Part shown: in pieces, positions 12,208 through 54,225 of the stretch | Layout of the letters: each line of letters starts with the position of its first letter | How positions within the stretch are numbered: position 1 is the first letter of the stretch | Source of the DNA: an uncultured bacterium | GTDB lineage: Bacteria; Muiribacteriota; Ozemobacteria; Ozemobacterales; Ozemobacteraceae | Reading direction: 5' to 3' | Assembly: GCA_964428355.1 (NCBI GenBank) | Contig: CAYRYU010000026.1 | Span: 11,521 to 75,520 of the forward strand | Length of the DNA stretch: 64,000 bases | Program-made: the position numbers and the translations under genes | The notes under the pieces: model-generated | Database searches by the model: none | What the model saw: only the letters and a program-made list of their open reading frames with translations | What the model was told of the DNA's origin: nothing

Positions 12208-12840
12208 TCAGTATTTCTCCTCGCTGAATTCCCCCGGAGTCCGCCATCTGGGATCGAGATTCGATTCCCGGGCCTGCCTGATCGAAACAACGAGCTTCTG
12301 ATGATGTGACTGCGGGACCTGGCTCCCGGAAGGGATTATGCTGACCTTTACCTCCAGTTCGACCAGAGAGGTGAAGGTGGAAACGGCCTTGATTTCCAAC
12401 ATGTCGACCTCGCTGCAAAGGAGACGCCGGCTGCCGCTCGCGTCGTTCCTTTCGATGGTCCTCCTGGAAGGGTCGAACAGGTATTCCACCCGCTTGTAGG
12501 CGACTTCTTTCTTCGGTCCGGGAAGCGCTTCGGGAACCAGCATCGTGCAGCCCCCCGAAGCGAGGGCCTGGAAAGAGCGCTCCACCGCGAACCGGTTTTC
12601 CCCGAGGGCTGTCACAACCGCAAAGGAGGTGGAGATGTCCCGTTCCATGGAACGGAGGATGATCTCCACCATGTCTTTCGCCTGGCCCCGGGCGGTACTG
12701 AGCGAAGTGGTTTGTCTTGCGGAGGAAAGGATCCAATAGAGGCTTCCGCTCAGGACTCCGAGAATCACGAGTGAGACGAGAACCTCCGCGATCGTGAATC
12801 CCGTCGATGCCCTGGCTCCAGGCTGCTTTCGCGATTTCAC
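12208..12840 (-). CDS. prepilin-type N-terminal cleavage/methylation domain pseudopilin (module C, third gene)
   Basis: MKSRKQPGARASTG|FTIAEVLVSLVILGVLSGSLYWIL: short basic leader, G-1, F+1, E+5 and a hydrophobic helix. 4-nt overlap with the upstream gene. Confidence 0.85.
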   Translation of the reverse strand: MKSRKQPGARASTGFTIAEVLVSLVILGVLSGSLYWILSSARQTTSLSTARGQAKDMVEIILRSMERDISTSFAVVTALGENRFAVERSFQALASGGCTMLVPEALPGPKKEVAYKRVEYLFDPSRRTIERNDASGSRRLLCSEVDMLEIKAVSTFTSLVELEVKVSIIPSGSQVPQSHHQKLVVSIRQARESNLDPRWRTPGEFSEEKY

Positions 12841-13322
12841 GGCCGGACCACCAGAAACATCATTGTCTCCGTGCTCTTGGCAAGACCTGCGTTGCCGGGG
12901 CGGGTCCAGGAGACGAAGGCCTCCACTCCGATCGCGTTCTTCGTCCCTTCGGCGAAACGGAATATCGCCCCCATCTCGAAATCCTTGTAGCCCCGCTGGA
13001 TGGAAACCACCCCAGATGCAGTCAGGTTCAGCCCCCGCCGGTTGAGTTCCGCCCCGTCGTATGCCTGGTAGACGATCGAATCGACCGGAACGAGTTTGAC
13101 GAGCCGGTTGAAATCCTGACTGAGGATCTCATGATGGAAGGACTCCAGGATCTTTCGGGCCATCGCGATCTTGGTGGCCTCGATCTCCTGGGCCGCGCCC
13201 TGGATCAGATGACGGTAGATCGGAACGGCGGCGAGAACGAAGATCACGACGGAAATCAGGATCTCGAGAAGGGTGAACCCCTCCCGACCCCGGAATCCCC
13301 ATTTTGCCTCACTGTTTGACAT
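12837..13322 (-). CDS. prepilin-type pseudopilin (module C, second gene)
   Basis: ...GFRGREG|FTLLEILISVVIFVLAAVPIY, a class III signal-peptide motif. Overlaps both neighbouring genes. Confidence 0.85.
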   Translation of the reverse strand: MSNSEAKWGFRGREGFTLLEILISVVIFVLAAVPIYRHLIQGAAQEIEATKIAMARKILESFHHEILSQDFNRLVKLVPVDSIVYQAYDGAELNRRGLNLTASGVVSIQRGYKDFEMGAIFRFAEGTKNAIGVEAFVSWTRPGNAGLAKSTETMMFLVVRP

Positions 13323-15993
13323 ATTGGAGGTTCAACCACCTTTTCCCCAGGGAAGCATGATACCGCCTTGGCTCGAACTTGCCAACGTCCCTCATGACGG
13401 ACAGGGGAGTGATCCTGCAGGCGGCGGCATTGAAATAGACCTCGACACTGTTGATGAAGGAACGGTTGAACTGGTTGATGACCAGGTTGCCGTCAATGAC
13501 CAACGGGTTCCCCGCGGGGTTCGTCAGCGTGGCGTTCGAGAAACAGGCCGCCTCGATCCGGGTACAAGGCTTCCTGACCATGATGCTTCCCGCACGGGCC
13601 ATCAACGTGAAAACCACATCCCCCGGCCGACTGCCGGGAGTCCCTGGATCCTTGTCCTGACGCATGATGTCGGTCTGCACGAAGATGTTGCCCTTCGCGA
13701 CGAGAATTCCCTTCCCCTTTACCTTCCAGGGCTTTCCGGCCTTGTCGGCGGTGATCCGCAGGCTTCCCTTGATGTAGGTCACCCCGGTGCAATCGAACAC
13801 CCCCTTGTCGGACCTCCCGCCTTCTTCGATGGGGCGGCCCACGTCCCGCCAGAAGTCCTCCTCGTTCTCGTAATAATGGGTCGCCTTTTTCGCATACTGA
13901 AGGATGCTATAGACGTTCTCGGGCATGTTCCGGAACTCGTAGGGAGACCATTGTCCGGTATCGCTCTTTTCGAAGGCAGGTTTTCCGACGAGCCCGAAAT
14001 CGTTTTCCGGCACCCGGTACTCGATGTATGACTCGGTCAGGTCCTTCGGCGGGGGACCGGCCCCCTTGGGAAGCACTCCCACATGAACGTTGCCGTATCG
14101 CATCTGCATAAAGGCTTCCGCACGCAATCCAAGGGGATATTCGATGTGACCATATCCGAAAAGGAGGCTCGGGGCGGCAAGGCCGTCGCACTGTTGGAGG
14201 ATCTTGAGGAGGTTCTTCGTCCCTACCGGGATGAAAGGCCGGATGGAACGGTCGGTGTTGTGAAGGACGGGGAAATCGACCTGGTGGGGCCGGTCGGGAT
14301 AGGCCGTCATGTCCAACCAATTGAAGGTCGGAATCCATTGGAAGATCGGGGGATCGACCGAGTTGGGCTTGAACTTGTCCATCGTCATCGCGTTGTATTC
14401 CGTCTGGAATGGCTCGTCCTTGGAGCCGATGAAGGTGTTTATCTTCATCATCCCATCGGAATTGACCCGGACGAGGCCTGGTACGAGGCAATTGGAGTCG
14501 GGGGCCGGAGTCCCGCCACACCCGTCGAACCCTGTCAATGCCCGGTAGTCTCCACCCGGAAGAGGACTCCCTTCCGGAAGCGGATGGACCGTGAAGGTGG
14601 CGAGGATCCCTGCCTTTTCACGTTCCGGGGGAAAACGCCACTCGATGGGTTTGCCTATCCGCGAAATATCGGCTGGATCGGGAATGGCGTTCTTGTCCTC
14701 GGGGCGTTCGAAAAGCAGGGGCGAGTTGGCCACGAAAAAGGCATACTCGGGCGCGGGCGGCTGGAGATCGGAAACCTTGAACTCCCGGTCGGCCTGGAGA
14801 ACCTTTCGGATATGGATTCCGCCCCCCCCTGTTCCGCCCTGGACAAACTCGACATGGGCGGTCAGACGGACTGTCCCGACTTTCTCGATTACCAGGGGTT
14901 TTGCCCCGAAGGCGGTCGAACGTTCCTGGCGCAACCGCTCCACATCGATCGGAGGGGGGAACGGCGGAAGTTTGTCCCATCCTGCCCGTATCGACTGATG
15001 GAGAACCCCTGCCCTCCATTCGACGCGGGAAAGGAAGTCCTCGATCTCACCCATGATCATCGAGCGGATCGAGGGCATCGAAACCCGCTTCCCCTTTGGG
15101 AAAGCCACGGTCTTCCGGATCTCCTCATCGATATCGAGCAGCCGCGGGTTCTCCTTCATCATCCCGGAGATGTCCAGGAAGCCCAGCGCGACGATCTTGG
15201 TGAAGATCTTGATGGCAGTCTCGGAAAGCTTGTCGAGGAATACCCGGGCCTGGGCAAAGATGGCCGCCAGGCCGACGAGAACCACCTTGTGCTCGTCGTG
15301 AGCGGCCAGATTCGGCAGTTCGAACCTGAACCGGGCATCGCTGGAAAGGCTTTTCAGGGACCCACCGGATTCCGGAACCCGGTCAATGCCGTCGAGAAAG
15401 CGGCTGGGTTCACCCCAGGCCGGGGTCGGAGGGATGGTAATCCCCGGAATCTCGTACTTTTCGTTGAAGGCGGCGAACCCCTGTGCCTGCAGTATCTCGC
15501 AGGTAACCTTGAGGCTGGGGACGTTGGAATTCCCGCCGAGGTCGTCCACGAGATCCTTCAGGGCCATGAGAGGTTTCTTGTCGATTCCCTCGAAAACCAG
15601 AGGCGGAGGAAAGAAGGCAGGTTCGAGGCCACCGTTTCCCCGCCCAAGGGGAGAAGCCTGGGGGTTCGGCGAGGACAGCGGGGCGATGAACCGGAAGTAG
15701 GCGAAAAGCTGGGGGTCGTCCTCGGGGTTGACGTTGTCCTTCAGGTATCTTGCGACAAGTTCGACCGCGGCCTCCGCAAGCGCCTCGACCCGTTTCTCGT
15801 GGCTCATGAACCGGGTCGAAAAACGCCGCGAATGGCTCGTGCGGAAATAGCCTACCAGAAGCAAAGCCAGGAGAACGACGATTCCCACCGTGATCACGTA
15901 GGCCGTCCCCCTTCGGTTTCCACCCTCCTGGGGACGCGAATGGGAAGGGATCGGGGGGGCGAAGTCAGCCGAAGATCCGTTTCCTGAGTGCAT
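13309..15993 (-). CDS. giant GspK/PilX-like N-terminally anchored protein (module C, first gene)
   Basis: 894 aa. N-terminus RRGTAYVITVGIVVLLALLLVGYF resembles the GspK/PilX RG-x-A-L-x-x-V-L anchor and lacks E+5. It shares blocks with the 19253 and 50967 products, for example REFKVSDLQPPAPEYAFFVANSPLLF. Confidence 0.8.
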   Translation of the reverse strand: MHSGNGSSADFAPPIPSHSRPQEGGNRRGTAYVITVGIVVLLALLLVGYFRTSHSRRFSTRFMSHEKRVEALAEAAVELVARYLKDNVNPEDDPQLFAYFRFIAPLSSPNPQASPLGRGNGGLEPAFFPPPLVFEGIDKKPLMALKDLVDDLGGNSNVPSLKVTCEILQAQGFAAFNEKYEIPGITIPPTPAWGEPSRFLDGIDRVPESGGSLKSLSSDARFRFELPNLAAHDEHKVVLVGLAAIFAQARVFLDKLSETAIKIFTKIVALGFLDISGMMKENPRLLDIDEEIRKTVAFPKGKRVSMPSIRSMIMGEIEDFLSRVEWRAGVLHQSIRAGWDKLPPFPPPIDVERLRQERSTAFGAKPLVIEKVGTVRLTAHVEFVQGGTGGGGIHIRKVLQADREFKVSDLQPPAPEYAFFVANSPLLFERPEDKNAIPDPADISRIGKPIEWRFPPEREKAGILATFTVHPLPEGSPLPGGDYRALTGFDGCGGTPAPDSNCLVPGLVRVNSDGMMKINTFIGSKDEPFQTEYNAMTMDKFKPNSVDPPIFQWIPTFNWLDMTAYPDRPHQVDFPVLHNTDRSIRPFIPVGTKNLLKILQQCDGLAAPSLLFGYGHIEYPLGLRAEAFMQMRYGNVHVGVLPKGAGPPPKDLTESYIEYRVPENDFGLVGKPAFEKSDTGQWSPYEFRNMPENVYSILQYAKKATHYYENEEDFWRDVGRPIEEGGRSDKGVFDCTGVTYIKGSLRITADKAGKPWKVKGKGILVAKGNIFVQTDIMRQDKDPGTPGSRPGDVVFTLMARAGSIMVRKPCTRIEAACFSNATLTNPAGNPLVIDGNLVINQFNRSFINSVEVYFNAAACRITPLSVMRDVGKFEPRRYHASLGKRWLNLQYVKQ

Positions 15994-16810
15994 TTATCTG
16001 CTCCTTCACGTCGGCCTCCACCAGGGGACGTTTGTCAGCCGGAACCTGCCATTTCCTCATGACCTCGTCCACGTAGGAGTTGAAAACGGTCTGGTCCTTG
16101 ATCGCCTTGAGTTGGAGAGCGGCATCCCTGACCCATTCGATGCTCGTCTCCGCATCGGTTTCGTCGAAACCCATGTGAGAGAAGTCGTTGTCCTTCAACA
16201 GCATGGCCTGGGCCATCGAATATTCTATGTATGCGTCCTCGTCCTGTAGTCTGGCCGCTGCTTCCCGCATATAGTCGTAACAATAGTATTTCGTCGTCGG
16301 AGAGGCCGCCGGATCTTCCAGAGCCTTCTTCAGCTCCCTCAGGGCGGCCTGGTAGTCCTTCGACTCGAAGGCTAGCACCGCAGCCGGCATGTTGGCGAGG
16401 GCCCGCATCCGGTAGGTTTCTTTGGTATCGGTGGCGATTTCCGGGTTCTCAAGGAAACCCGCGAACCATTCATCGGATTCCTTTTTTCCCTCCTCCCGGA
16501 AATCGCGGGCCTCCTGGGCGATGGCCAGCATCTCCTCGCTCACCACCTTCGAGGACGCCCGTGGAGCTGAGGCCACCGAAAGGGTGGATTGGGGGGAACC
16601 CCAAAAATCCGGGCTGGGAGCGTATTGGTCGGGAGAAGGGGGTGGACCAACCACGACCGGGGAAGTTGCGGGCCCTGAATCCGTTGACGTGGACCTTTCC
16701 AACCATGGGGGCAATCTCCCGAGCAGGAGAAAAAGGAGGCAAAGGAAAAGGACCAGTATTACGACCCAGATCCACCGCTTGCTTTCCATTTCGATCTTTC
16801 CATTCTCCAT
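15965..16810 (-). CDS. single-pass membrane protein with TPR-like helical domain
   Basis: TM helix WIWVVILVLFLCLLFLLLG, a P/S-rich linker, then helical repeats (AVLAFESKDYQAALRELKKALE...). Overlaps the start of the downstream GspK-like gene, so it is probably the first gene of the module C operon. Confidence 0.7.
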   Translation of the reverse strand: MENGKIEMESKRWIWVVILVLFLCLLFLLLGRLPPWLERSTSTDSGPATSPVVVGPPPSPDQYAPSPDFWGSPQSTLSVASAPRASSKVVSEEMLAIAQEARDFREEGKKESDEWFAGFLENPEIATDTKETYRMRALANMPAAVLAFESKDYQAALRELKKALEDPAASPTTKYYCYDYMREAAARLQDEDAYIEYSMAQAMLLKDNDFSHMGFDETDAETSIEWVRDAALQLKAIKDQTVFNSYVDEVMRKWQVPADKRPLVEADVKEQINALRKRIFG

Positions 16811-17197
16811 TCCGAGGATTGAGAACCCGCCTGGAGTGGAACCCGTTACTGGAGCGCACTCAAAAGAACATTCTCACCGAACCTTCCCGGTAACTGAAGC
16901 CGCGAGATCCGACTGCCCGGTGGTTCCAAGTCAAACAATCTTACCAGAAATTCCCGGGTAGGGTTACAGGAAATTGCCCTCTCAGGTCGGAAACAGGCAA
17001 GAATAAGGCGCGCGGGGCCGGGAAACGACCCAAAATGAACACCGCAGAAAAATGGCTGGGAGAAAGGCAACGGGGTCGCGGAGTCACAGAGGCGAAAAGG
17101 GAATCTTTTTTTGGCCCCCATCCAATCGACTTTCCATCTCCGAATCTCCGAGCTTGGGGGCAAATCCCCTCGGTCATTTTTCTTGCCCCCAGAAACG

Positions 17198-17237: not shown

Positions 17238-17594
17238 ATGGATGCTTTTTCGATTCGCATTGAATCTCATGATCCCGTGACGATCATCCGGATCCAGGGC
17301 TATCTTGCTCTGGAGGCCGGCCAGGAGCTTCACGAAAGGTTGTTCGATCTTTTGAAGCAGGGAAAACTCCGCTTCCTCCTCGATTTTTCCGAGTGCAAAC
17401 TGATCAGCAGCCCCGGAGTGGTGAGCCTTCTCGAACTGGTGATCAAGGTAACGGATGATTTCCGGGCCCGAATTGCGATCTCGGGACTGGACGACCTGAA
17501 AACAAAGGTATTCAAGATGGCCGGTGTTTCAAACATCGCCCCGGCTTTTCCGCAGGAATCCCAGGCATTGGGTCATCTCCTCAAGGACAGCTAA
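17238..17594 (+). CDS. STAS-domain anti-sigma-factor antagonist (SpoIIAA/RsbV-like)
   Basis: 118 aa. Typical layout: VTIIRIQGYLALEAGQELHERL...LRFLLDFSECKLISSPGVVSLLEL...ISGLDDLKTKVFKMAGV, with the conserved phosphorylatable Ser position (ISSPG). Confidence 0.9.
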   Translation: MDAFSIRIESHDPVTIIRIQGYLALEAGQELHERLFDLLKQGKLRFLLDFSECKLISSPGVVSLLELVIKVTDDFRARIAISGLDDLKTKVFKMAGVSNIAPAFPQESQALGHLLKDS

Positions 17595-17699
17595 GCCAGG
17601 GCCCTTTCGAGAACTGCCGGTTCCCGGAAAAAATGTAACCGTTCCCGGGTTATTCCGGTAAGGTGGGTGGGTCCGATTTCACACCGAAGGAGAAAACCA

Positions 17700-18023
17700 A
17701 TGGTTCGTTCCGCGATTTCCCTCTTCCTCGTGGTTCTGACCAGCGTCTTTCTATCCGGATGCTGCTGCCCCGCTCTTGATCTCTCAGCCCTTTTCGGGGG
17801 CGGCCAGACGACCTTGAACGCCCCTACCCAGACCCAGTCCCAGGATGCCGCCGCAGCGAAACAGACCGCCATCGAAGCAAAGGCAGCGGCTGACCAGGCT
17901 CTGGAAAAGGCGAACCAGCAACAGACGCAGATCGATGCTCTCAAGACCTCGATCAAGGAAACGAATTCCACCTCTCCGGCGGGAACATCATCCAGCACGG
18001 TTCCGGCAGCCGACTCGAAATAG
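17700..18023 (+). CDS. small lipoprotein with Ala/Gln-rich coiled coil
   Basis: ATG at 17700 preceded by AAGGAG. MVRSAISLFLVVLTSVFLSGC lipobox, then AAAKQTAIEAKAAADQALEKANQQQTQIDALKTSIKE. Confidence 0.7.
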   Translation: MVRSAISLFLVVLTSVFLSGCCCPALDLSALFGGGQTTLNAPTQTQSQDAAAAKQTAIEAKAAADQALEKANQQQTQIDALKTSIKETNSTSPAGTSSSTVPAADSK

Positions 18024-18091: not shown

Positions 18092-18664
18092 ATGACGGAA
18101 AAAGGGGCCAGGGTGTTCCCCGAATCGGAACTGGTGCAGAAGGCAAAGCAGGGCCTCCAGGAAGGTTACGAGGGGCTCGTCGACCGCCACCTCGGGGGAG
18201 TGCATGCCTTTCTCATGCACCTCCAGGCACCGGAATCGGTTCGTGATGACCTTGTCCAGGAAACGTTCGTAAAGGCATTCCGGTCTATCGGAGGCTTCGA
18301 TGCCTCGAAACCCTTCGGATCCTGGCTCCTCACGATCGCAAGGCATGTCCTTTACGACCATAATTCCAACGCGAAGAGACAACTCGAAGCCCGGAGCCCG
18401 CTCGGGAGGCCGGCCCCCCACCACGATATCTCCCAGGGAGTCATCGATCGCCTGTCTGTCAGGCAAATCCTGACCAGGCTTTCCCCTGCCGACCGCCTTC
18501 TGATAGAGCTTCGCGTTTTCCAGGGGATGTCCTTCCCCGAAATCGCAGGGCTGTTCGGAGAAGCGGTTGGAACGATGAGGGTGAGGTTGCATCGAATCCT
18601 CGCCGGGCTCAAGGAAAGGATCAATGACGCGGAGGAAAGGGAAAACAGGAATGAACAAGCCTGA
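18092..18664 (+). CDS. ECF-type RNA polymerase sigma factor (sigma-70 family)
   Basis: Region 2 (DDLVQETFVKAFRSIGGFDASKPFGSWLLTIARHVLYD) and region 4 (LSPADRLLIELRVFQGMSFPEIAGLFGEAVGTMRVRLHRILAGL). Confidence 0.9.
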   Translation: MTEKGARVFPESELVQKAKQGLQEGYEGLVDRHLGGVHAFLMHLQAPESVRDDLVQETFVKAFRSIGGFDASKPFGSWLLTIARHVLYDHNSNAKRQLEARSPLGRPAPHHDISQGVIDRLSVRQILTRLSPADRLLIELRVFQGMSFPEIAGLFGEAVGTMRVRLHRILAGLKERINDAEERENRNEQA

Positions 18665-19256
18665 ACTCTGCCGGGACGTTTTCGACATCCTGTCCGGGGC
18701 ACCGGCAGGAGACCTTCCGCCCCACCTCGCCGCTCACCTTGCCGACTGTTCGGAATGCAGGGCGTTGAAAGCCACCCTTTCGGCTGTTGCCGAAGCCCGT
18801 TCGACTCTCGATCCAACAGTTCATGACAGTCTGAAAGCCGGAATACTCGGATCGGTGTGCCCGGCGGGTCCCTCGTCGACCGAGGGGGGGTGCACTCCCT
18901 CGGCCGGTTTGAATGAGGAACCACAAATCCCGGAATCAACGGTTTCAAGGGTTCTGGGAATACCTGCAAAAGCCATCCCATTCGTTGCCGGGGCAATCCT
19001 CGTTCTTTTCCTGGGATTTCCCATGTTCAAGAATCTCTTGACCCGGGTTTCGGGAGGCCGAACGGCAGAAGTTTCCAAGACCTTTCTCCAGGCGCAACCC
19101 CCTGGTTCACGACCGCCACCGGGCGCGGGCGGTGCAGAGCCCGGCAACCGCATTTCGTCCGGTCCATCGCAGCCGGCAGGTTCACCTCCTGCCGAGGTCA
19201 CCGAACAATCCAACCCGACCGGTACCATGGGGATTCCCCCGGTGGACGCCAAGTGA
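18651..19256 (+). CDS. zinc-finger (zf-HC2) single-pass anti-sigma factor
   Basis: ATG at 18651 overlaps the sigma-factor stop. H-x3-C-x2-C motif (HLADCSEC). TM helix IPFVAGAILVLFLGFPMF. P/G-rich extracytoplasmic tail. Confidence 0.8.
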   Translation: MNKPELCRDVFDILSGAPAGDLPPHLAAHLADCSECRALKATLSAVAEARSTLDPTVHDSLKAGILGSVCPAGPSSTEGGCTPSAGLNEEPQIPESTVSRVLGIPAKAIPFVAGAILVLFLGFPMFKNLLTRVSGGRTAEVSKTFLQAQPPGSRPPPGAGGAEPGNRISSGPSQPAGSPPAEVTEQSNPTGTMGIPPVDAK

Positions 19257-21289
19257 TCCCGATCCGGCCCGCAGAACGAGGGAACCTGGCCAAGCATACG
19301 AGAAAGGGCATCGCACTCTGGCTGGTTCTTCTCGTCCTGATCGTCCTCGGAACCCTGGCCTTCCGCTATGCATGGATGGCCAGCTCCGGCCGTGCGGTCG
19401 TTTTCCGCTTCGAGCAGAGCGGCATCGCCCGGGATCTTGCCGATTCCGCCTCGCTCGAGGGCCTTGCCTGGCTTCAGAAAAGGACCGCCTCCCCGGAGAC
19501 CCCGGAAAGCAGGTGGCTGCTCGAACGTAGTCCCACTCCCCTTCCTCTCCCGGTTCCAATGACGCTGGAACAGGCCGGCAGGTCGATCGGCGGGGATTTC
19601 GCTCCCCTGATCGAAACCGAAGCCAGATGCCTGGATTTCCGGGGTGAAAGCAGCATGAAGAACCGATATGGGCCCGGTGAGGGCGTAGGAACCCTCGAGA
19701 TTTCGGTCCGGGTAAGGATCTCGTCACCCTCTGGCGGAGGAAAGGACCGCGCGGATGTCCATCTTTCGAGGTTCCACGATTTCAAGGTTGCCGACATCGT
19801 TAGCCCCCGGTCCAATGTAGGCCAGCGCGATTCCTACTTCCAGGGTTTCATTCTGGATTTCGCTTTCTTCCTGCGAGACGGGGTCTCGGAGTTCCGTTCG
19901 ACCCTGGGCGCGAACCTGAATTCCCGGGGAACGCGCCTTCAGATCATCCAGTCGCATCTGGACCCGGCACACCGGGGAAAGGTCTTCATCGGGGGAACCG
20001 AAGACCAGGCCGCCGACCGTCTTGTTTTTCTCAACATCGACGAAGCCCGTGGGGACCTCATTCCTTCGCTTCCCCGGAAGGTGATTCGAACGGTCGGTTA
20101 CGACGAGCTGAGGATCCTCTTTCCAAGGTTGAGGTATTACGAGGGAAAACATCCCCTTCTGCTGCCGGTTCTGAGGAAACTCCGTGGAATCTTCGAGGCG
20201 GCAAACGTTCCCCTGGTCAGAAATCAGCCCGCCGCATCCGATCCGGTGGGAATATGCGAAGACCAGGTTCGGACGTTTCTTCGCTCGGTCGCCAAAGACG
20301 AAGAGGCGAATTCCGATCCGGGCCTGGATCTCGTGATGGACCTTCCCGCGCTCCTTTCAGATCCCGCCCAGGCGGATTCGGTCCTCGAAGGAAGGCTCCG
20401 GCAGCGTTTCATCCACTTCGTCACCTTCCGCTTCGATATCTCCGGTATCGTGGATCCCACCACCCTGGTTCTCGAGCCGGATGACCGGAAGCTCCTGGAC
20501 TCCCTCCTCCCCTGCACTCCGCCCCCCTCGCCACCCCTGACGAACACGAACCTCCGGGATTTTTTGGAAAAACTCCCCGAAGTAAACGGCACCCCCCCAG
20601 ATCCCGGGCTTTCAATCATCTCCCGTTTCGACACCGACTTCCTGTACCGTCCGGGCTTGACCATGTCTAGCCGGCTTCGCCCCGATTCCTTCGCGGTTCC
20701 AAGATTCTTCAATGCGAGCGGCAGGATGATAACCGCGGGAACGCCAAACCCGGGAGGAATGGAACCGTTCGCGCACGTCAATCTCTGGGGATACCGCATG
20801 ACCGACCCCGTTTCTCTCGAAGAAATAGGGGTTCTGGACAGGAAGAACCGGAAGATCAATCTTCGGGGCATCAAGTGGACAGACGGAATGGTCTCCCTGG
20901 GAGACCCGGGAGGACCGACATCGATCGAAGGCCAGGGAATACTAATCTCAAAGGGAGGCTTCCGCATCCTGGGACCCCTGAGGAAATCGTCCCCCGAGGC
21001 CCTTTGCATCCTTTTCACCCACGGAGGGGACATCGAGGTGGACACGGACCAACCCGTCGAATCATCGCTGATAGCCATTCCCGACGGCACAACCGGAGGG
21101 GAGATCCTTCCCCTGAAAACACTCGATCTTTTCGGGGCCTTTGCGGCCAGAACCCTTTCCCTCAACAGGTGGAAAGGGAAAGGGATCCACAAGATCCGCT
21201 ATGATCCTCTTCTCAAGCGGGATTCCCCGCTCAGAAGCATCGTGATTTCTCCCGCGGTTTCCTTCCACAGGATCACGGAGGGAATCTGA
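19253..21289 (+). CDS. giant GspK/PilX-like N-terminally anchored protein (module A, first gene)
   Basis: 678 aa. The GTG start overlaps the anti-sigma stop (GTGA). N-terminus TRKGIALWLVLLVLIVLGTLA. Collinear with the 50967-52940 product: LVFLNIDEARGDLIPSLP vs PIFLNIHESLAGIIPKAP, and C-termini IRYDPLLKRDSPLRSIVISPAVSFHRITEG vs IQYDERLKPERDIYSITISPVPQFQRISES. Confidence 0.8.
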   Translation: MIPIRPAERGNLAKHTRKGIALWLVLLVLIVLGTLAFRYAWMASSGRAVVFRFEQSGIARDLADSASLEGLAWLQKRTASPETPESRWLLERSPTPLPLPVPMTLEQAGRSIGGDFAPLIETEARCLDFRGESSMKNRYGPGEGVGTLEISVRVRISSPSGGGKDRADVHLSRFHDFKVADIVSPRSNVGQRDSYFQGFILDFAFFLRDGVSEFRSTLGANLNSRGTRLQIIQSHLDPAHRGKVFIGGTEDQAADRLVFLNIDEARGDLIPSLPRKVIRTVGYDELRILFPRLRYYEGKHPLLLPVLRKLRGIFEAANVPLVRNQPAASDPVGICEDQVRTFLRSVAKDEEANSDPGLDLVMDLPALLSDPAQADSVLEGRLRQRFIHFVTFRFDISGIVDPTTLVLEPDDRKLLDSLLPCTPPPSPPLTNTNLRDFLEKLPEVNGTPPDPGLSIISRFDTDFLYRPGLTMSSRLRPDSFAVPRFFNASGRMITAGTPNPGGMEPFAHVNLWGYRMTDPVSLEEIGVLDRKNRKINLRGIKWTDGMVSLGDPGGPTSIEGQGILISKGGFRILGPLRKSSPEALCILFTHGGDIEVDTDQPVESSLIAIPDGTTGGEILPLKTLDLFGAFAARTLSLNRWKGKGIHKIRYDPLLKRDSPLRSIVISPAVSFHRITEGI

Positions 21290-21291: not shown

Positions 21292-21777
21292 GTGCGGAGC
21301 CTGCAAAAATGTGCCCCGTCCCGGTTTCCCCGCCCCGGGTTTTCCCTTCTCGAGGTCCTGATCGCCTGCTTTCTTCTCGCCCTGGCCCTTCTTCAACTCC
21401 TCTGGATGAACCGGTATTCCAACGAATGGGCTATGGATGCCTATTATCGGGCGATGGCAACCTCCCTTGCCCGCGAACCGATCGTGATCTTCAGGGGTTT
21501 TGGGGCACGCTGGCTCCGTGACTACGAGAAGCACCAGCTCCCCCAGTATCCCCTGGGTTGGAGCCCGATTCGGGAAGCGGACGGGGATCTCTCGATGCAC
21601 CCCGCGGAATCGGGGGTTTTCCAACGGAATATCTCCCTGACCAACCTTGAACAAGCCGGGAGCAGGGGTGTCCGGGTCACCGTCACCGTGGTTCCGGAGG
21701 GCGGGACCCGTGTCATGCGGTGGCTCCGCCGGGACCAGCTTGTACTGGAAGCCTTGATTCCGGAGGGAATGCCGTGA
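21292..21777 (+). CDS. prepilin-type pseudopilin (module A, second gene)
   Basis: ...RFPRPG|FSLLEVLIACFLLALALLQLLWMNRYSNEWAMDAYYRAMATSLAREP. Close paralog of the 52937-53419 product. Confidence 0.85.
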   Translation: MRSLQKCAPSRFPRPGFSLLEVLIACFLLALALLQLLWMNRYSNEWAMDAYYRAMATSLAREPIVIFRGFGARWLRDYEKHQLPQYPLGWSPIREADGDLSMHPAESGVFQRNISLTNLEQAGSRGVRVTVTVVPEGGTRVMRWLRRDQLVLEALIPEGMP

Positions 21778-22562
21778 GAGGGAATCTCTCAGCCTTTTTT
21801 CCGGCGACCGATTGTCGGAAGCATTGTCGGGAGCGCGGGATGACGCTTTTGGAGGCCGTCCTGGTGGTCTCCCTGGTGGTTCTTCTGCTCGGCCCGATAT
21901 ATCAGGTTTTTCACCATGGTACAAGAGCCTCGCTCAGGGGGATGCTGCACGTCGAGACGTCCATGGAAGCGATGCGCGTCCTTCGTCAGGTTTCCGACGA
22001 CCTCCGTGATTCCTGCCTTCCCATGGACGAACAGGGCTTCACCCTCGATTTCTCGAAAATGCTCGGAACCGACGGGGTTCCGCCGCTGCAGTCCTACACT
22101 TTCCTCAGATTCCCCCAACATGGTTCCCCCGACCAGGTGATGCAGTTCGCCCGCCAGGGTAAGGCATCCCGGCGGGCCAGCCGGATCACCTACCGCCTCG
22201 AGCCTCTTTCGAAAGCCGGGTTGAAACACAGGCTGATCAGGACCGAGCGATTCCATCCCGAACACCCCCTCGCGTCGACCTATCCCGGAGGGGAGAGAAT
22301 AAGCATCCTGAGCGAGCGGGTCCATTCCTTCATTCTTCTTCCCGACTCGGCACGTTCCGGAAACCGTGAGCTGCACTTCTTCTGGGTGACGCTCCAGATG
22401 GTCGATTCCCTCTCCCCCGCCGATGAGGAAAGGATTCTCCAACGAAGGGAACAGGCCGCTATCGGAGACTATTTCGACGTGGTCTACCCCGAATTCTTCA
22501 ACGCCTTCCAGAACCGGGGTTTCTTCAACCGGAACTGGCACACGGGGATTTCGGCCCCATGA
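21774..22562 (+). CDS. prepilin-type pseudopilin (module A, third gene)
   Basis: ...CRERG|MTLLEAVLVVSLVVLLLGPIYQVF. Proposed GTG start at 21774 overlaps the upstream stop (GTGA); the track ORF starts at 21720. Paralog of the 53416-54225 product. Confidence 0.8.
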   Translation: MRGNLSAFFPATDCRKHCRERGMTLLEAVLVVSLVVLLLGPIYQVFHHGTRASLRGMLHVETSMEAMRVLRQVSDDLRDSCLPMDEQGFTLDFSKMLGTDGVPPLQSYTFLRFPQHGSPDQVMQFARQGKASRRASRITYRLEPLSKAGLKHRLIRTERFHPEHPLASTYPGGERISILSERVHSFILLPDSARSGNRELHFFWVTLQMVDSLSPADEERILQRREQAAIGDYFDVVYPEFFNAFQNRGFFNRNWHTGISAP

Positions 22563-23355
22563 AGAACGCGATGATGCCAGATCCCACGAAGAAAAGGGAA
22601 AGAACCTGGTGGGTCGTGAGCCCCCAATGGACGATCGGGTTCAGGCGGATGAACTCCACGAGAAACCGGGAAACCCCGAACCATACGAGAAAGATCGCGT
22701 ATCTTCGCCCCGACCCAACCTTGAGGGGGAGCGCCAGAAGCAGGATGAACAGGGCAATGTGGCTGAGGCTTTCGTAGAGTGGCGCGGGATGGACGGAGAT
22801 CGCCGCAGGAACCGGTTCCCCCGGATACATCGACCGGAAAAGATTGCAAAGCAACGGGTTTCTTTCCGAAAGGGTGGAACACAGGCCGTTGGGAAACGTC
22901 ATCCCGAACCACGAAATGGTCGGAGCCCCATAGCAACCGTCCCCGGAGAAGAGGCATCCCAGCCTGCCGACGGCGTATCCAACAGCGAGCCCGGGGGACA
23001 TCAGGTCCCCAATCCGCAGGATCGATTGTCCTGCGTGCCTGATCCTGATCCAGCAAAGAATGGTTCCGAGGATGAACCCTCCAATAACGGAGAAACCGAA
23101 AAACGAGAAGACCGCATGAACCAGGTCGGACCGATAGGCAGGCCAGAACTCGAATACGCAGAGAATTCGTGCCCCGACAACGCCGCCGAAGATCGCCAGA
23201 ATAAACACATCGCGCAGAAGGACCATTTCCGCATCATTCTCCCGGAACTCCTTCCAGGAAAGAAAAAGGGCGAGACCGAAAGCCACCGTTACGAAAAAAC
23301 CGTAAATGGCGATCGGGAGAAGGATCGCAACCGGAAAACCAGTCCCCATCGGCAC
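22525..23355 (-). CDS. lgt: prolipoprotein diacylglyceryl transferase
   Basis: Polytopic membrane protein with Lgt-family blocks: ...GARILCVFEFWPAY..., GGFILGTILC, AVGRLGCLFSGDGCYGAPT, HPAPLYESL, VSRFLVEFIRLNP. Confidence 0.85.
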   Translation of the reverse strand: MPMGTGFPVAILLPIAIYGFFVTVAFGLALFLSWKEFRENDAEMVLLRDVFILAIFGGVVGARILCVFEFWPAYRSDLVHAVFSFFGFSVIGGFILGTILCWIRIRHAGQSILRIGDLMSPGLAVGYAVGRLGCLFSGDGCYGAPTISWFGMTFPNGLCSTLSERNPLLCNLFRSMYPGEPVPAAISVHPAPLYESLSHIALFILLLALPLKVGSGRRYAIFLVWFGVSRFLVEFIRLNPIVHWGLTTHQVLSLFFVGSGIIAFFMGPKSPCASSG

Positions 23356-23663: not shown

Positions 23664-26591
23664 ATGAGATCCTGTCCCCAGGATCCCGCCGATCTTTCTC
23701 CCGAGACCGGAAAACAGGTTTCAAGGCAAGTAGAGAGGGATGGGGATGCGGACCGTTCCCGGAACTCCCTGCTTCTCCCAATTGCATCCATCGTTCTCGT
23801 TATCGCACCCCTGGTTTTTCTGCTCTGGGCGGGGTTTGCCCTGGCCGACCAGGAAGGGGAGGACCATCGGGCTTCCGTCAGAAAGGAACTCGCGGAGCTC
23901 GCCCGCGAACTGTTGACTGAGACCGACCCGGGACACCTGACAAGGGCCGGCTTCCTTGCCTGGGTGGGGAAGGAAGGGCACACCCGTCCTCAACCGGACG
24001 AGCGGAATTCCCCCGTTGCCTGGTGGCGAAGCGGGGATGGAGCGGCTTCCTGCCCGGGTTATCTGGAAGATCTCGGCCGTTTCTTCCAGACCGGGAGTAT
24101 GGCTTCCCCATCCACTTTCTTCCGGTTGACGGACAACCTGGGCTGGGGATTCAGGCCCGCTTTCTGCCGTGACAATCCGGGACTTCCCGTCGAGGTCCTC
24201 TGGAATGGGTCCTGGCACCGGCTGATATGGGATTTCGAACCGGGAACCGATCACGTTCGACTGGCAGTCCTTCCGCCGCCCGATCAGGAAAAAGCCATTC
24301 GGGAAGCATGCGGCCGCCGTTGCCCAGGAACATCGACCGGATGGAGCGTCCTCCAGAGGACTCCGGAAAATCCATTCCGGACTGCTTCCGCGGCCCTCCC
24401 ACCCCAGTCAGCTTCCCTTCCTTACGGCATTGACGACCGGGGGCCGGAAGAAAAGGAAACCCATGTCGAGCGGATCAACCCCTGGTTGTCTTTGATCCTG
24501 GAACGCCCGGTCACCGATCCCGCACCGGGAATCAGGCTCCGGATCGCGGCCATGGCGGCAATCCTGTTCCTCTTCCTGGGTCTGGGGATGCGGAATTTTC
24601 CCCGCTGGTCCGTCCGGGCCAAGACCGGCTTTTTCGTTGTGTATCTGGTCGGCGTGCCTCTGATGATCATCCTGGTCCAGAGCGGTGCCCTGCGTAGAGG
24701 AAGGGTTTTCCGTGAGGAAAGCCGCCTTCGGCAAGAAGGGGAAGCGATGCTGCTGGACTTCGACAGAAGGTATTCCGATTTCGAAATGACTTTTGGAAAA
24801 GGCTTGAAGTCCCTTGTCGGGTCGGACTCCTTTCGTCGATCGAATCCCGAGTCTCTCCGGTCGATTATCCAGCCATTGATTGAAGGGGGACGCATCCAGG
24901 ATATTCTGGTACTCGACCAGAAGGGGTTCCCATTTCTTTCCCTCTCCAAGACACCTTTCCACGGCGAAAGGAGCCGGGTCCACCAGGAATATATCCAGTC
25001 CATCCTCGAGGAGCGAAACTCCCTCCCCCGGACCTCCCGTTCAAAGATGACCGACAGCCTTTTCGAGGTTTTCCGAAAGTCCTCCTGGGGTTCCGTGGTC
25101 GAGTCTCCAGGCCGGCTGGTCCAGTTCATGACAGAGGGAAAGCAGGTCTACAGTTTCATCTATTTCTTCCCCCAAGGAAAAACAGACCCGGGCGCAAAAG
25201 GGCGCCCCACACCGGAGTCCCCCGATCCGCGAGGGAAGGCCGAAGAAGCTCCCAGACCCGGAGCGGTCCTCATCCAGATGGGGATGGCGGAGGTTGCCAG
25301 GACATACCTGAAGCAAAACCTGCCCGGCAACTGGAAGTTCCGGATCTCGGCAAGGGAAAGGGAGACTGGAAACTGGTTTCCGGATCCGACAACGGAATTC
25401 CCCGCCTTCGAGGCTTTCGTGGATTCTGTTGCCCGTCAGAAGCGACTTCTCAACTGGTCCTTTCCGACTCCCGACGGGACCGCCCTCGTCCTTGGGAGGC
25501 CTGGACAAAGGCTTGCGGGCTATGACCTCATCGCGTTCATTTCCCCTGAAAAACTCGCCGCCGGCCCTGAGGAATGGACGCGAAGCCTTTTACTCCAGGC
25601 AGGCCTCTGCATGATCCTGCTCATGGCGGGCTGGTGGTTCCTGAGCACGAGCGTCATCGGGCCTCTTCGGGAAACCCTCGAGGGCGTCCAGAATCTCCGG
25701 CGCCGCCGCCTCGATTACCGTATCCAGACAACATCCGGAGACGAACTGGGCAGGCTGGGCGAGGCGTTCAACCAGATGTTGGAGGTTTCCAAGGAGATCC
25801 AGGCCGCAAGGGAAGTCGAGGAAAGGCTCCAGCCACCCGGTGACCCGAAGATCCCGGGGATCTCCTTCCGGACATGGTATTGGGGCGGGCTCGCCCTGGA
25901 CGGTTGCATTAGGGATTGGTTCGAGCTTCCGGATTGCTCCTGGGCAATTCTTCTGGGAACCTCGCACGGGCGGGGAATCACCGCCGCCCTGGGTTCGGGA
26001 ATGGCTCGGGCGATCATCATTTCCCATTGTCAGGAGGGTCTCGACCCCGCCGGCCTTTTCCCTCGCATCCACAAAGCCTTCCTCAGCCTGCAGGGCCCCG
26101 CCCAGGCAAGCGATTCGGGAAGTCGCCCTGCAGCCCCTCCCGTCTCCCTTTGCCTGTTGATCTACCACCCCGCCGGCCATTCCTTCGTAGCCCACCAGGC
26201 GGGGTTTCCCCGCCTCGCCCTTTGCAGGGCGCAGAACGGGCAGATTTCCTTCCCCCCCAACCCCGGGATTCCTCTTGGGTCGATCGAGCGTTTTGAAACG
26301 GGGGTTTTCCGGGAAACCCTCTCCGAAGGTGACTCCATCGTCCTGGCCTCGGTCCCCCCGGTTTCGGATTCCTCCGTTGAGTCCACCGAAATGATCCGGG
26401 AGTCTTTCCACGGATTGGTCCGGAAAGCCGGGAACCCTCTTGAGGGGGATTTTCCGGACCATTTCGGTTCGGGGTTGGAAGGGGAGCTGGGGGAGGTCCT
26501 CAAACGGGGGGTCAGCGCGGTCGTGATCCGCAGAAATCGCAGCTCCACTCCCGACCTTTCGGGGCCGTCGGAAGGGGGTGCCCGGAATTGA
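23664..26591 (+). CDS. large membrane sensor protein, HAMP + degenerate PP2C/SpoIIE-like domain (predicted pseudophosphatase)
   Basis: 975 aa. Several TM segments, then a HAMP domain (IGPLRETLEGVQNLRRRRLDYRIQTTSGDELGRLGEAFNQM). The C-terminal domain aligns to SpoIIE but carries LGTSHGRGITAAL in place of GDVxGHG, GDSIVLASV in place of SDGLxE, and GVSAVVIRR in place of DDxTxLxLRR. Confidence 0.85.
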   Translation: MRSCPQDPADLSPETGKQVSRQVERDGDADRSRNSLLLPIASIVLVIAPLVFLLWAGFALADQEGEDHRASVRKELAELARELLTETDPGHLTRAGFLAWVGKEGHTRPQPDERNSPVAWWRSGDGAASCPGYLEDLGRFFQTGSMASPSTFFRLTDNLGWGFRPAFCRDNPGLPVEVLWNGSWHRLIWDFEPGTDHVRLAVLPPPDQEKAIREACGRRCPGTSTGWSVLQRTPENPFRTASAALPPQSASLPYGIDDRGPEEKETHVERINPWLSLILERPVTDPAPGIRLRIAAMAAILFLFLGLGMRNFPRWSVRAKTGFFVVYLVGVPLMIILVQSGALRRGRVFREESRLRQEGEAMLLDFDRRYSDFEMTFGKGLKSLVGSDSFRRSNPESLRSIIQPLIEGGRIQDILVLDQKGFPFLSLSKTPFHGERSRVHQEYIQSILEERNSLPRTSRSKMTDSLFEVFRKSSWGSVVESPGRLVQFMTEGKQVYSFIYFFPQGKTDPGAKGRPTPESPDPRGKAEEAPRPGAVLIQMGMAEVARTYLKQNLPGNWKFRISARERETGNWFPDPTTEFPAFEAFVDSVARQKRLLNWSFPTPDGTALVLGRPGQRLAGYDLIAFISPEKLAAGPEEWTRSLLLQAGLCMILLMAGWWFLSTSVIGPLRETLEGVQNLRRRRLDYRIQTTSGDELGRLGEAFNQMLEVSKEIQAAREVEERLQPPGDPKIPGISFRTWYWGGLALDGCIRDWFELPDCSWAILLGTSHGRGITAALGSGMARAIIISHCQEGLDPAGLFPRIHKAFLSLQGPAQASDSGSRPAAPPVSLCLLIYHPAGHSFVAHQAGFPRLALCRAQNGQISFPPNPGIPLGSIERFETGVFRETLSEGDSIVLASVPPVSDSSVESTEMIRESFHGLVRKAGNPLEGDFPDHFGSGLEGELGEVLKRGVSAVVIRRNRSSTPDLSGPSEGGARN

Positions 26592-50771: not shown

Positions 50772-50966
50772 CCCCTAGATCCTTTCTCTTTTCCGTTAGC
50801 CCTCTTGGTGGCTCTGAACAATGATATCACGGTCGACCGTCGGGCAAAACCGTCCGACTTCTTCCGGGCCATCACCCCTGTTGTGCTATCATCTCACGAG
50901 TCCTCACCTCAACTGATGGAGGGGCCCCGTGGGTATCCCGGAGATGATCGATTCGCTTCACCCGCT

Positions 50967-52940: not shown

Positions 52941-53419
52941 TGAAGCGAAAAGGATTTTCCCTTCTCGAGCTCCTGATCGGCTTCCTCATCCTTTCCATCG
53001 GAATCGGGAGTTTCCTCTGGTTGAACCGCATGTCGAACCAGGTCACGATGGACTCCTACTACCGCCTGCTTGCAACGAGATTGGCATGGGAACCGGTGGA
53101 GGTATGCCGGGCAATCGGGTTCTCGAGGTTGAGCCTCCTTCTTCGGAACTCCCCCAACGAGCCTTTGAAGGGATATTCAAACGAATGGATCCAGGTGCCC
53201 GAGAGTCAGGAGAACTCCGGCGGGTTTCCACGGCTTTTTCGACCTCCCGAAGCCTCCCTTTTCGAAAGGAAGGTGGTCTTCGGAGAGTTGAGCGATGGAA
53301 TGACTTCCCACATCGCGATCTCGGTCGAGGTGCGGCTGAAAGGTGAGTCCGCGTGGGGAAGGTTCCTGAAGAGAAATGTCCTGCAGGCCTCGGGCCTGAT
53401 CTGGGAGAAAGTCCCTTGA
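52937..53419 (+). CDS. prepilin-type pseudopilin (module B, second gene)
   Basis: MMKRKG|FSLLELLIGFLILSIGIGSFLWLNRMSNQVTMDSYYRLLATRLAWEP. The ATGA overlaps the upstream stop. Confidence 0.87.
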   Translation: MMKRKGFSLLELLIGFLILSIGIGSFLWLNRMSNQVTMDSYYRLLATRLAWEPVEVCRAIGFSRLSLLLRNSPNEPLKGYSNEWIQVPESQENSGGFPRLFRPPEASLFERKVVFGELSDGMTSHIAISVEVRLKGESAWGRFLKRNVLQASGLIWEKVP

Positions 53420-54225
53420 GAAGGTCGAGAAGACAGGGTTTCACCATGATCGAGGCGATCATTGTCGCAACATTGATTGCACTTCTCGTCATCCCTCTCT
53501 GGGACACCCTCAAGGGCGGGGCGAAGGGAAGCCTTTTCGGGATGCGAAAGATCGACACCTTTCTCGAAGCGGAAAGGATCCTGCGGTTGCTCCATCAGGA
53601 TCTCAAGTGCTCTCTTTTCATCATCCCCAGCGGGAAATTCAACGGGCAGAACTCTTTTCTGCTGGGAAATCCGGGAGGTGTTTCGGCCGGCCCGAAACCG
53701 AACATCGTCGTTACGAAACAGGGAACCTGGCCAAACCTCCGATTTTCGTTCGTCTACTTCCCTTTTCAGGGAGAAATCGATCGGATCGTCGGCGCCGACA
53801 GGTCGGAGGGCCTTGGGAATCGGCTTTTGAACAGGATCGAATATCGGCTCGAGGCATCGAAGGAATACCCTTCCTGCTTTTCACTGGTCAGGAAAGAAGT
53901 CTTCCATCCGGATCACCCCCTGGCGGGGGTGAATCCGGGCGGGGCGGTGGAAAAGGTGCTCAGCAACAGGGTCAATTACTTCGAAATCGAGTGTTTTTCT
54001 CCTCCCGAGGCTCCCGACGTCCAGGTTTTCTGGGTAAGGATTTCCCTGTATGAAACCCCCCCCGCTGGAATTGGAACGAATCCACCCGGAAGCATCCTGG
54101 CAGATTCGGGCAAGATCGTGGAATTCTTCGATACCGTATCATCGGATTTTTTCCAGAACATCCGTCAGACGGTCGGTTATCGTCCCTGTTACCACATCTA
54201 CGGAACCAGCGCTCCAACTGAGTGA
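53416..54225 (+). CDS. prepilin-type pseudopilin (module B, third gene)
   Basis: (TTG)RRSRRQG|FTMIEAIIVATLIALLVIPLW. Proposed TTG start at 53416 overlaps the upstream stop (TTGA); the track ORF begins at 53353. Confidence 0.8.
   Translation: MRRSRRQGFTMIEAIIVATLIALLVIPLWDTLKGGAKGSLFGMRKIDTFLEAERILRLLHQDLKCSLFIIPSGKFNGQNSFLLGNPGGVSAGPKPNIVVTKQGTWPNLRFSFVYFPFQGEIDRIVGADRSEGLGNRLLNRIEYRLEASKEYPSCFSLVRKEVFHPDHPLAGVNPGGAVEKVLSNRVNYFEIECFSPPEAPDVQVFWVRISLYETPPAGIGTNPPGSILADSGKIVEFFDTVSSDFFQNIRQTVGYRPCYHIYGTSAPTE

Follow-up and report, generated by a model that had tools for sequence, protein, structure and literature searches.

Three gene triplets of a large pilin-like protein and two pseudopilins in an Ozemobacteraceae contig: candidate alternative tip complexes for a type IV filament machine encoded elsewhere

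What does a bacterium do with three sets of pilin-like genes in one genomic region that holds no recognizable pilus machine? The question is raised by a 64,000-nt stretch of contig CAYRYU010000026.1 (assembly GCA_964428355.1, positions 11,521 to 75,520 of the forward strand) from an uncultured bacterium of the Ozemobacteraceae. This whole stretch is hereafter the window, and all coordinates refer to it. The three sets are gene triplets that we name module A (15993-12208, minus strand), module B (19253-22562, plus strand) and module C (50967-54225, plus strand). Each encodes a large protein (A1, B1, C1) with a pilin-like N-terminus, followed by two pseudopilins (Table 1). We favor the reading, at a probability of roughly 0.6, that the triplets are alternative tip/priming minor-pilin sets serving a type IV filament machine whose genes lie elsewhere. 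The claim is one of analogy: the triplet proteins would work like GspK, PilX, GspI/J or Verru_Chthon proteins, which is not to say that they are members of these families. We suggest that uncultivated Riflebacteria probably make type IV filaments whose tips can be switched.

The first-pass annotation of this DNA had described three tightly coupled triplets, and the open reading frame (ORF) listing, the translations and our own reading of the junctions from the sequence agree with it. In module A the A1 and A2 genes overlap by 14 nt and A2 and A3 have a GTGA in common; module B has a 2-nt gap between B1 and B2 and a GTGA common to B2 and B3; in module C an ATGA joins C1 to C2 and a TTGA joins C2 to C3. 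The last junctions of modules B and C fix the starts of the third genes: B3 begins at the GTG at 21774 (262 aa) and C3 at the TTG at 53416 (269 aa). Such start/stop overlaps throughout the triplets fit subunits made in fixed proportions. An assembly artefact, which had been named at first pass as grounds for discarding the three copies, or a very recent duplication is refuted by the divergence of the copies: protein identity between modules is ~30% or less (~30% between B and C, marginal for A), which makes collapsed or duplicated contigs impossible. Further, the layout of modules A and B is identical in two independent assemblies, and B1 and C1 are each closer to relatives from other genomes than to each other. 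We found no point in support of either explanation.

The kinship of the modules turned out to be the reverse of that first proposed, in which A and B were collinear and C the more diverged. Each of the three proteins of B has a full-length paralog in C (BLASTP: B1 versus C1, 30% identity over 659 aa, E 5e-72; B2 versus C2, 32% identity, E 6e-24; B3 versus C3, 29% identity, E 2e-32), and A is the outlier, its A1 reaching B1 with a best E of 0.2 in weak segments that are collinear. Homology between A1 and B1/C1 is detectable solely in two places: the N-terminal helix region, where A1 27-94 also matches the collected family in phmmer, and the C-terminal domain, where the last ~165 aa of A1 align to the B1/C1 family with an hhalign probability of 95-96% (E 1e-8 to 2e-8; the B1/C1 family profile was run against A1 and against an A-type profile). 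Between A3 and the B3 family 107 columns align (probability 88%), and A2 is related to the B2 and B3 families through the alpha1 helix only. The closest relatives of C1 are the proteins P0005 and P0007 and not B1, hence the split between B and C is ancient. Going by these alignments, the 'three paralogous modules' should be read as two ancient paralogs (B, C) and one remote, architecturally equivalent module (A). The word-indexed protein search returned a single homolog of A1 (P0175, 43% identity), and a further relative lies in L092, a low-GC metagenome contig (LXOW01319648.1). There, A-type modules stand in tandem (3320-9095) in the order: a small membrane protein, an A1-like gene broken by Ns, a prepilin gene, a second small membrane protein and, at the end, the N-terminus of another A1-like gene. 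Given the low GC of this contig, A-type modules also occur in an organism of very different composition. The small membrane proteins precede the A1-like genes of L092 as A0 precedes A1 in the window.

The two smaller proteins of each triplet had been called pseudopilins with prepilin motifs, and domain models and a motif scan concur. PF07963 (N_methyl) is matched by all six (Pfam, E 1e-6 to 2e-3), four of them at or above its gathering score of 21.2 bits, with B2 (20.8 bits) and B3 (18.3 bits) just under it; most of the six also match TIGR02532 (NCBIfam). A2, A3, B2, B3, C2 and C3 each show the elements of a class III signal, namely a basic leader, Gly-1, Phe or Met at +1, Glu at +5 and ~20 hydrophobic residues. 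A six-frame scan of the 64 kb for G|(F/M)(T/S)xxE finds exactly six prepilin sites, along with three anchors of the 'basic-G + hydrophobic, no Glu5' type; one further match of the scan, inside the sigma factor described below, was set aside as a false positive. Beyond the signal, the likeness to named families is confined to the N-terminus: B2, which is PilV/GspI-like there, and C2 resemble PilV (TIGR02523, E 1.9e-6 and 7.5e-8), at 28-33 bits against a cutoff of 52.2, and A2 and A3 bear a weak N-terminal likeness to gspJ at ~20 bits against a cutoff of 64.85. In sequence searches of the PDB, the profiles of both small-protein families match solved pilins over the alpha1 helix only. The AlphaFold2 model of B3, of moderate quality (predicted local distance difference test (pLDDT) 74.8), has a helix at 9-62 (54 residues) followed by at least six beta strands: this is the predicted pilin layout of a long alpha1 helix and then an antiparallel beta-sheet. 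The B3 model has no PDB neighbor at E <= 0.001 in Foldseek, and on that null the idea of a GspJ-like fold for B3 was dropped.

The large proteins combine a short basic leader and Gly-1 with a hydrophobic helix that lacks Glu5, as is seen in GspK and PilX. Both of these lack Glu5 and are placed atop the tip complex (PMC7541494). The GspK/PilX-style anchor first ascribed to A1, B1 and C1 is borne out across their family: among 64 aligned members none has Glu5, 57 of 58 have Gly-1, and the leaders are short and basic. An exhaustive HMMER search with a B1+C1 profile recovered 172 representative clusters at E <= 1e-3 (113 of them at E <= 1e-30). Members are mostly of 620-750 aa, and a short form of ~396 aa retains the N-terminal third and the C-terminal domain. 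The family is unannotated and mostly Riflebacterial: the names, where the sources give any, read 'hypothetical protein' from Candidatus Riflebacteria, Rifleibacterium or Ozemobacteraceae metagenome-assembled genomes (MAGs), and all taxonomically informative names seen bar one point to Riflebacteria, the exception being an 'Erysipelotrichia' that is probably mis-assigned. Going by these names, an organism of the Riflebacteria lineage is the most likely source of the window; TilS gave best matches at 31-42% identity that were scattered over many phyla and did not place the organism. In JGI labels, one large member is called 'PilX' and one small member 'PilV'. A word-indexed protein search with B1, and likewise with the 64-sequence profile, returned the query itself only, and scans of a genome collection with B1 and with P0175 found nothing. 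The alignment has no stretch of 7-10 columns that is conserved.

Domain models leave the large proteins without a family. A1, B1 and C1 have no credible Pfam or NCBIfam match, the sole trace being one of the N-terminal 57 aa of A1 to TIGR02600. For GspK (T2SSK/NF037980) they give no match at E <= 1 (Pfam) or E <= 0.1 (NCBIfam), and PilX_N (PF14341) matches no protein of the window. Among the 64 relatives one matches the GspK model (E 0.005) and one PilX_N (E 1.4e-4); PilX_N, GspK, ComGG and Verru_Chthon_A account for the weak N-terminal matches seen in a few family members. In profile searches of the kind that the first-pass annotation had proposed, the prepilin signal is there in the six small proteins, and membership of the large ones in GspK or PilX is not supported. 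The C-terminal domain matches positions 76-183 of DUF7305 (PF23981) in two of the ten members tested (E 7e-5 and 8e-4), with scores under the gathering score, and B1, C1 and A1 themselves are without a match. A beta-helix in this domain was considered and abandoned, the bactofilin and tailspike matches (E ~2.5) being too weak to use.

The AlphaFold2 model of B1 is of high confidence (mean pLDDT 92.4, predicted template-modelling score (pTM) 0.87). Its helix runs without a break from 18 to 77 (60 residues); residues 117-183 form an antiparallel sheet of three strands, 199-530 a region of mixed alpha/beta structure and 534-677 a beta-rich C-terminal domain. The helix and the antiparallel sheet support a pilin-type N-terminal architecture, and a helix-plus-sheet layout is thus predicted for the large protein. 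A Foldseek search gave no neighbor of the model in the PDB or BFVD at E <= 0.001 (best PDB E 0.25), and no pseudopilin is among the best 50 PDB matches listed. Of the structure first expected for B1, the pilin-like N-terminal helix is therefore present in the model; the GspK-like fold is not supported, and that claim is dropped.

Is the pilin-like N-terminus more than an anchor? It could serve as a membrane anchor or export tag on cell-envelope adhesins or binding proteins that are never polymerised, an alternative we consider unlikely. Many prepilin-motif proteins of bacteria of the Planctomycetes-Verrucomicrobia-Chlamydiae (PVC) group have no known role in pili. Pilus machinery is unlinked in all the loci examined here, the globular domains are unlike those of known minor pilins, and one large member, P0004, occurs without adjacent pseudopilins. 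What speaks against the anchor-only explanation is the strictness of the set: the co-occurrence of three genes with stop/start overlaps suggests heteromeric assembly, one Glu5-less subunit with two Glu5 subunits is a specific signature of tip complexes, and Gly-1 is kept to the near-uniform extent given above. The order of large protein, ~150-aa protein and ~210-280-aa protein is retained at eight of the ten family-member sites inspected; the order-keeping sites are L083, L085-87, L089, L090, L091, L093 and the first L088 module, in which the order of the two small genes is uncertain. Of the other two sites, the second L088 module has a single small protein, and L094 lacks both. L094 is the site of P0004 (679 aa, 38% identity to B1, at 2600-4639 of a 7.1-kb contig from Logan SRR12133404). 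This contig shares its sample of origin with one of the assemblies of the window organism, is of similar GC (57%) and carries a PurU-like gene after P0004. P0004 may be a fourth, orphan copy in the genome of that organism or may derive from a relative. The presence of several sets per genome, first remarked for the window, holds as a trait of the family, since it is also seen in L088, in L092 and in L091 plus L093. These last two loci belong to one genome, which thus has one sigma-linked and one sigma-less module, as in the window.

Module B is translationally coupled to a gene pair for an extracytoplasmic function (ECF) sigma factor and a putative anti-sigma factor. Upstream of B1 stand, in order, a STAS gene, a 107-aa ORF, the sigma gene and the gene for the 210-aa putative anti-sigma factor, whose stop codon overlaps the start of B1 (GTGA). 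The sigma factor has Sigma70_r2 and Sigma70_r4_2, no region 3 and a length of ~190 aa, as befits the ECF class. The putative anti-sigma factor follows directly, is without a Pfam match and has an HxxxCxxC motif in the form H-LAD-C-SE-C; its positional equivalent in L089 has a weak FecR match. The order sigma, anti-sigma, large, small, medium recurs in L083, in L085-87 (with the short form of the large protein), in L088, in L089 and in L093; in L088 the sigma-linked arrangement occurs twice in tandem. Triplets without the pair are those of L090 and L091 and the modules A and C of the window.

This linkage bears on a further alternative, in which the ECF sigma/anti-sigma device would have the triplet as its sensor or relay outside the cytoplasm, the pseudopilin-like trimer contacting the anti-sigma factor and reporting an envelope or surface cue. 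We regard it as improbable, more so than the anchor-only explanation. It draws on the overlap of the anti-sigma stop with the start of the large gene, on the recurrence of the sigma, anti-sigma, triplet order in at least five loci including one with the 396-aa short form, on the weakly FecR-like anti-sigma and on neighbors (STAS, HAMP-PP2C, HEAT) that are all of regulatory types. It is opposed by the fact that genes co-transcribed with an ECF sigma factor are usually the output of its regulon and not its sensor, and by modules A and C and loci L090 and L091, which keep the triplet without the pair. A fuller form, which we hold to be slightly more doubtful again, would make of sigma factor, anti-sigma factor and triplet a self-contained signalling device that uses a pilin-like heterotrimer or short pseudopilus as a probe read by the anti-sigma factor; equally doubtful is its corollary that the sigma-less A and C are extra probes or outputs of the circuit. 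If true, cell-surface signalling would have in such a device a counterpart that is specific to Riflebacteria, made of parts of type IV filaments and of a protein fold without known relatives. Alternative tip sets remain our preferred reading, and one or two of the triplet copies are probably switched on by the adjacent ECF sigma factor.

The regulatory side of this reading comes from a candidate promoter motif, TGTAAC-N17-(C/G)GTAA, which came to light when the sequences ahead of the sigma genes were inspected. The window holds exactly two copies, where 0.04 would be expected; this count has to be read with the knowledge that the regions counted had in part also served to derive the motif. One site lies upstream of A0-A1-A2-A3 and the other upstream of the 107-aa ORF, sigma, anti-sigma and B1-B2-B3. 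The two are near-identical (TGTAAC-N17-GGTAAG): both contain a core of 23 positions, TGTAACCnTnCCCGGGnnnTTCnGGTAAG, which is matched nowhere else in the window even at three mismatches. The motif is also found upstream of the sigma genes in L085-87, in L088 (two sites) and, with one mismatch, in L083; the sites L088:2379 and L083:8461 were found only after the motif had been fixed. It occurs once in 413 kb of unrelated loci. We infer from this distribution that an autoregulated ECF promoter also drives module A. A one-mismatch copy in the window (TGTACC-N17-GGTAA, 38444-38471, plus strand), ~100 nt upstream of an unannotated 220-aa ORF (38568-39230), could be another member of the regulon or a chance match. 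Generic promoter and terminator scans of the window gave nothing above chance except a sigma-70-like site before the STAS gene. Ahead of C1 there is a gap of nearly 1 kb (50004-50966), in which the C1 frame is open back to 50019; the open frame 50019-50966 was rejected as a gene. The gap holds an unannotated 226-aa ORF on the opposite strand (50091-50771) with no Pfam match.

Where, then, is the machine? Pfam scans of the window, covering ORFs of 90 aa or more that remained after a greedy selection without overlaps, longest first, confirm the early statement that pilus or type II secretion system (T2SS) machinery is missing from the 64 kb: besides the triplets no domain of a pilin, ATPase, platform protein, peptidase or secretin was found. 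The emphasis then placed on this point was unwarranted, as minor-pilin operons are commonly unlinked from the genes of the machine. Several observations nevertheless weigh against the tip-set proposal. A major pilin, prepilin peptidase, ATPase, platform protein and secretin are missing from the window, and none of them was seen at nine related loci out to a distance of 10 kb. Neither structure nor sequence comparison could detect a similarity of the globular parts of B1 and B3 to GspK, PilX, GspJ or PilW. There are three pilin-like proteins per set, as against four in the canonical sets of the T2SS and the type IVa pilus (T4aP), no PilY1 domain in any scanned ORF of the window, and a gene order that is K-I-J-like and not I-J-K. 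Module C has no ECF-type motif nearby even at three mismatches, and the motif count has the circularity mentioned above.

The mechanism that we envisage for alternative tips runs as follows; processing, assembly, tip position, sigma dependence and the partner machine are all inferred. The large protein would be a modular minor pilin with a basic leader, Gly-1 and a hydrophobic segment of ~21 residues without Glu5, in which novel domains are grafted on a 60-residue alpha1 helix and a beta-sheet head; among these would be the beta-rich C-terminal domain, a putative distant relative of DUF7305. The two small proteins would be conventional Glu5 pseudopilins. A prepilin peptidase encoded elsewhere would first cleave the three proteins, whose mature forms would associate in the inner membrane via their alpha1 helices; the heterotrimer would prime, and then cap, a filament of a major pilin built by a machine whose genes also lie elsewhere. 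The position at its top would fall to the large subunit, which lacks Glu5, as it does to GspK in GspI-J-K and to PilX in the T4aP, and the extra domains of this subunit would be displayed as a ligand-binding or adhesive end. The ancient paralogs B and C and their remote relative A would then provide alternative tips. The ECF pair, co-transcribed with module B, may drive its own operon and module A via the common TGTAAC-N17-GGTAAG promoter, and such control of modules A and B would make the composition of the tip answer an envelope or extracellular signal; module C would be controlled in some other way.

The gene neighborhood has regulatory elements of its own. In L083, which is a Riflebacteria MAG, HEAT and STAS genes are found upstream of the sigma-linked module, and HAMP-SpoIIE genes are also near the modules in L083, L088, L089, L090 and L093. 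In the window, a tandem pair of ~1000-aa proteins is encoded beside module B (23664-29374, plus strand) and another beside module C (55393-61550, minus strand). Three of these four are sensor HAMP-PP2C (SpoIIE) proteins, and the fourth (58548-61550) has no Pfam match and a weak similarity to the other three. HAMP-PP2C and STAS genes together hint at a partner-switching circuit; no RsbW-like kinase was seen.

Other genes of the window are listed here for completeness. Proteins with mostly eukaryotic domains are encoded at 39434-41092, 61908-63890, 7683-9131 and 48717-50003 (all plus strand): this set comprises a Vps62 and FRG1/fascin-like protein, a cPLA2-type PLA2_B lysophospholipase and two ankyrin or TPR-ankyrin proteins. 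A 792-aa protein (287-2665, minus strand) has an N-terminal SLH domain, which suggests that this organism has an S-layer or an outer-membrane tether of the SLH type. The 263-aa ORF at 41670-42461 (minus strand) matches the Schlafen group 3 helicase domain with its C-terminal 45 residues (E 4e-9) and may be a gene fragment. The window has no Rfam families and no tRNAs. Spurious ORFs were removed at 12807-13319 (plus strand; the real gene is A2 on the opposite strand), at 16941-17333 (minus strand; the real gene is on the other strand/frame), at 17591-18688 (minus strand; the sigma factor gene is on the opposite strand) and at 22423-23667 (plus strand; overlapping the Lgt gene on the opposite strand).

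Table 1. Modules A, B and C, candidate promoters and neighboring genes in the window
Feature	Position	Strand	Description
A1	13309..15993	-	894 aa; N-terminus RRG|TAYVITVGIVVLL; distant B1/C1 relative, own subfamily
A2	12837..13322	-	161-aa pseudopilin, G|FTLLE; PF07963 E 1.2e-5
A3	12208..12840	-	210-aa pseudopilin, G|FTIAE; PF07963 E 1.3e-5
B1	19253..21289	+	678 aa, Glu5-less, pilin-like; N-terminus RKG|IALWLVLLVLIVLG
B2	21292..21777	+	161-aa pseudopilin, G|FSLLE; PF07963 E 2.8e-4
B3	21774..22562	+	262-aa pseudopilin, leader ...RERG|MTLLE; GTG start; PF07963 match
C1	50967..52940	+	657 aa, B1 paralog; N-terminus YRG|FVLPLVLLILFLV
C2	52937..53419	+	160-aa pseudopilin, MMKRKG|FSLLE; PF07963 E 1.2e-6
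C3	53416..54225	+	269-aa pseudopilin, LRRSRRQG|FTMIE; TTG start
Candidate ECF-type promoter	16940..16968	-	upstream of A0-A1-A2-A3; TGTAACCCTACCCGGGAATTTCTGGTAAG
Candidate ECF-type promoter, presumably autoregulated	17634..17662	+	upstream of 107-aa ORF, sigma, anti-sigma, B1-B2-B3; TGTAACCGTTCCCGGGTTATTCCGGTAAG
A0	15965..16810	-	single-pass membrane protein, 274-281 aa; heads module A operon; 29-nt overlap with A1 start
107-aa ORF	17700..18023	+	first gene after candidate promoter; no credible Pfam match
ECF sigma factor	18092..18664	+	190 aa; PF04542 E 7e-15, PF08281 E 6e-11
Putative anti-sigma factor	18624..19256	+	210 aa; one membrane helix; Pro/Gly-rich tail
STAS-domain protein	17238..17594	+	sigma-70-like promoter 17198-17227; syntenic in L083
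HEAT-repeat protein	9652..12003	+	HEAT protein also beside module in L083, L088, L089, L093
Two tandem sensor HAMP-PP2C (SpoIIE) phosphatases	23664..29374	+	conserved neighborhood
Lgt (prolipoprotein diacylglyceryl transferase)	22525..23355	-	directly after module B, convergent

The ligands of a type IV filament and the timing of its assembly are decided by minor-pilin tip complexes, whose diversity is largely uncharted outside model Proteobacteria and Firmicutes. Our literature search found nothing on pili or secretion systems in Riflebacteria. What is new here is a conserved three-gene set found mostly in one candidate phylum, a 650-900-aa pilin-like protein without Glu5 whose predicted architecture is confident and has no PDB or BFVD neighbor, and the tie of the set to an ECF sigma/anti-sigma pair, with a candidate promoter motif common to modules A and B. 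From these come a regulon open to direct testing and a candidate for a new tip module. No concept is overturned. It was already established that a genome can have multiple minor-pilin sets apart from the genes of the machine, and that pilins can be modular.

Among the known systems, the GspI-GspJ-GspK tip of the T2SS (with GspH) is like the triplets in having a large Glu5-less subunit and smaller Glu5 pseudopilins encoded by adjacent, coupled genes; the likeness to GspK extends to extra structure grafted on a pilin scaffold and to the presumed priming or capping role. The differences are that the proteins of the window match no GspK, GspI or GspJ model above cutoff, that the models of B1 and B3 give a Foldseek null against solved structures, that the large proteins are two to three times the size of GspK, and that the triplets have no GspH-like fourth member, place the large gene first and are not linked to gsp machinery. 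In regulation, there is a parallel in Pseudomonas aeruginosa, where FimS-AlgR controls fimU-pilVWXY1Y2E and the regulator lies directly beside the minor-pilin operon. There too a dedicated, envelope-responsive regulator adjoins such an operon; it is a two-component system, however, whereas here an ECF sigma/anti-sigma pair is part of the same transcription unit.

The Verru_Chthon cassettes of the TIGRFAMs (TIGR02596, TIGR02598, TIGR02599, TIGR02600) are reportedly multi-copy sets of a giant protein and prepilin-motif proteins in Verrucomicrobia. They resemble the triplets as repeated cassettes of a very large protein with a PilX-like N-terminus and small prepilin-type proteins, unlinked to pilus genes and of unknown function, and differ in cassette sizes and phylum. 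Membership is not indicated: A1 scores 15.5 bits against the TIGR02600 cutoff of 332.3 and covers positions 1-57 of ~1300, and Verru_Chthon N-terminal matches are found in four of 64 family members (best E 8e-5), far below threshold. The likeness to DUF7305 concerns the beta-rich C-terminal domain, and DUF7305 is itself without a known function.

A parallel to several sets per genome is offered by clusters 1-3 of Myxococcus xanthus, which are likewise paralogous and apart from the machine genes (PMC7541494). Their PilX lacks Glu5 and is placed at the top, and the sets have been proposed as alternative tips (PMC7541494). They have four minor pilins and a separate PilY1 adhesin, whereas the triplets have three pilin-like genes and no PilY1 and are thus not of the T4aP minor-pilin/PilY1 cluster type of M. 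xanthus or P. aeruginosa; here the large pilin itself may carry the tip module. Modular pilins with undescribed modules are widespread, and many such modules have no database signatures (PMC8179133). As in PilB and PilC of S. sanguinis and in CofB, which join a pilin module to bulky extra domains and are expected at the filament tip (PMC8179133), the large proteins would bear their additional domains on a pilin-type base; they differ in that these domains have no structural neighbor and that the N-terminus is of the Glu5-less PilX/GspK type. The reading that we favor would thus bring together, by analogy, the alternative tips of M. xanthus (PMC7541494) and the modular pilin (PMC8179133) in a new lineage and a new protein family.

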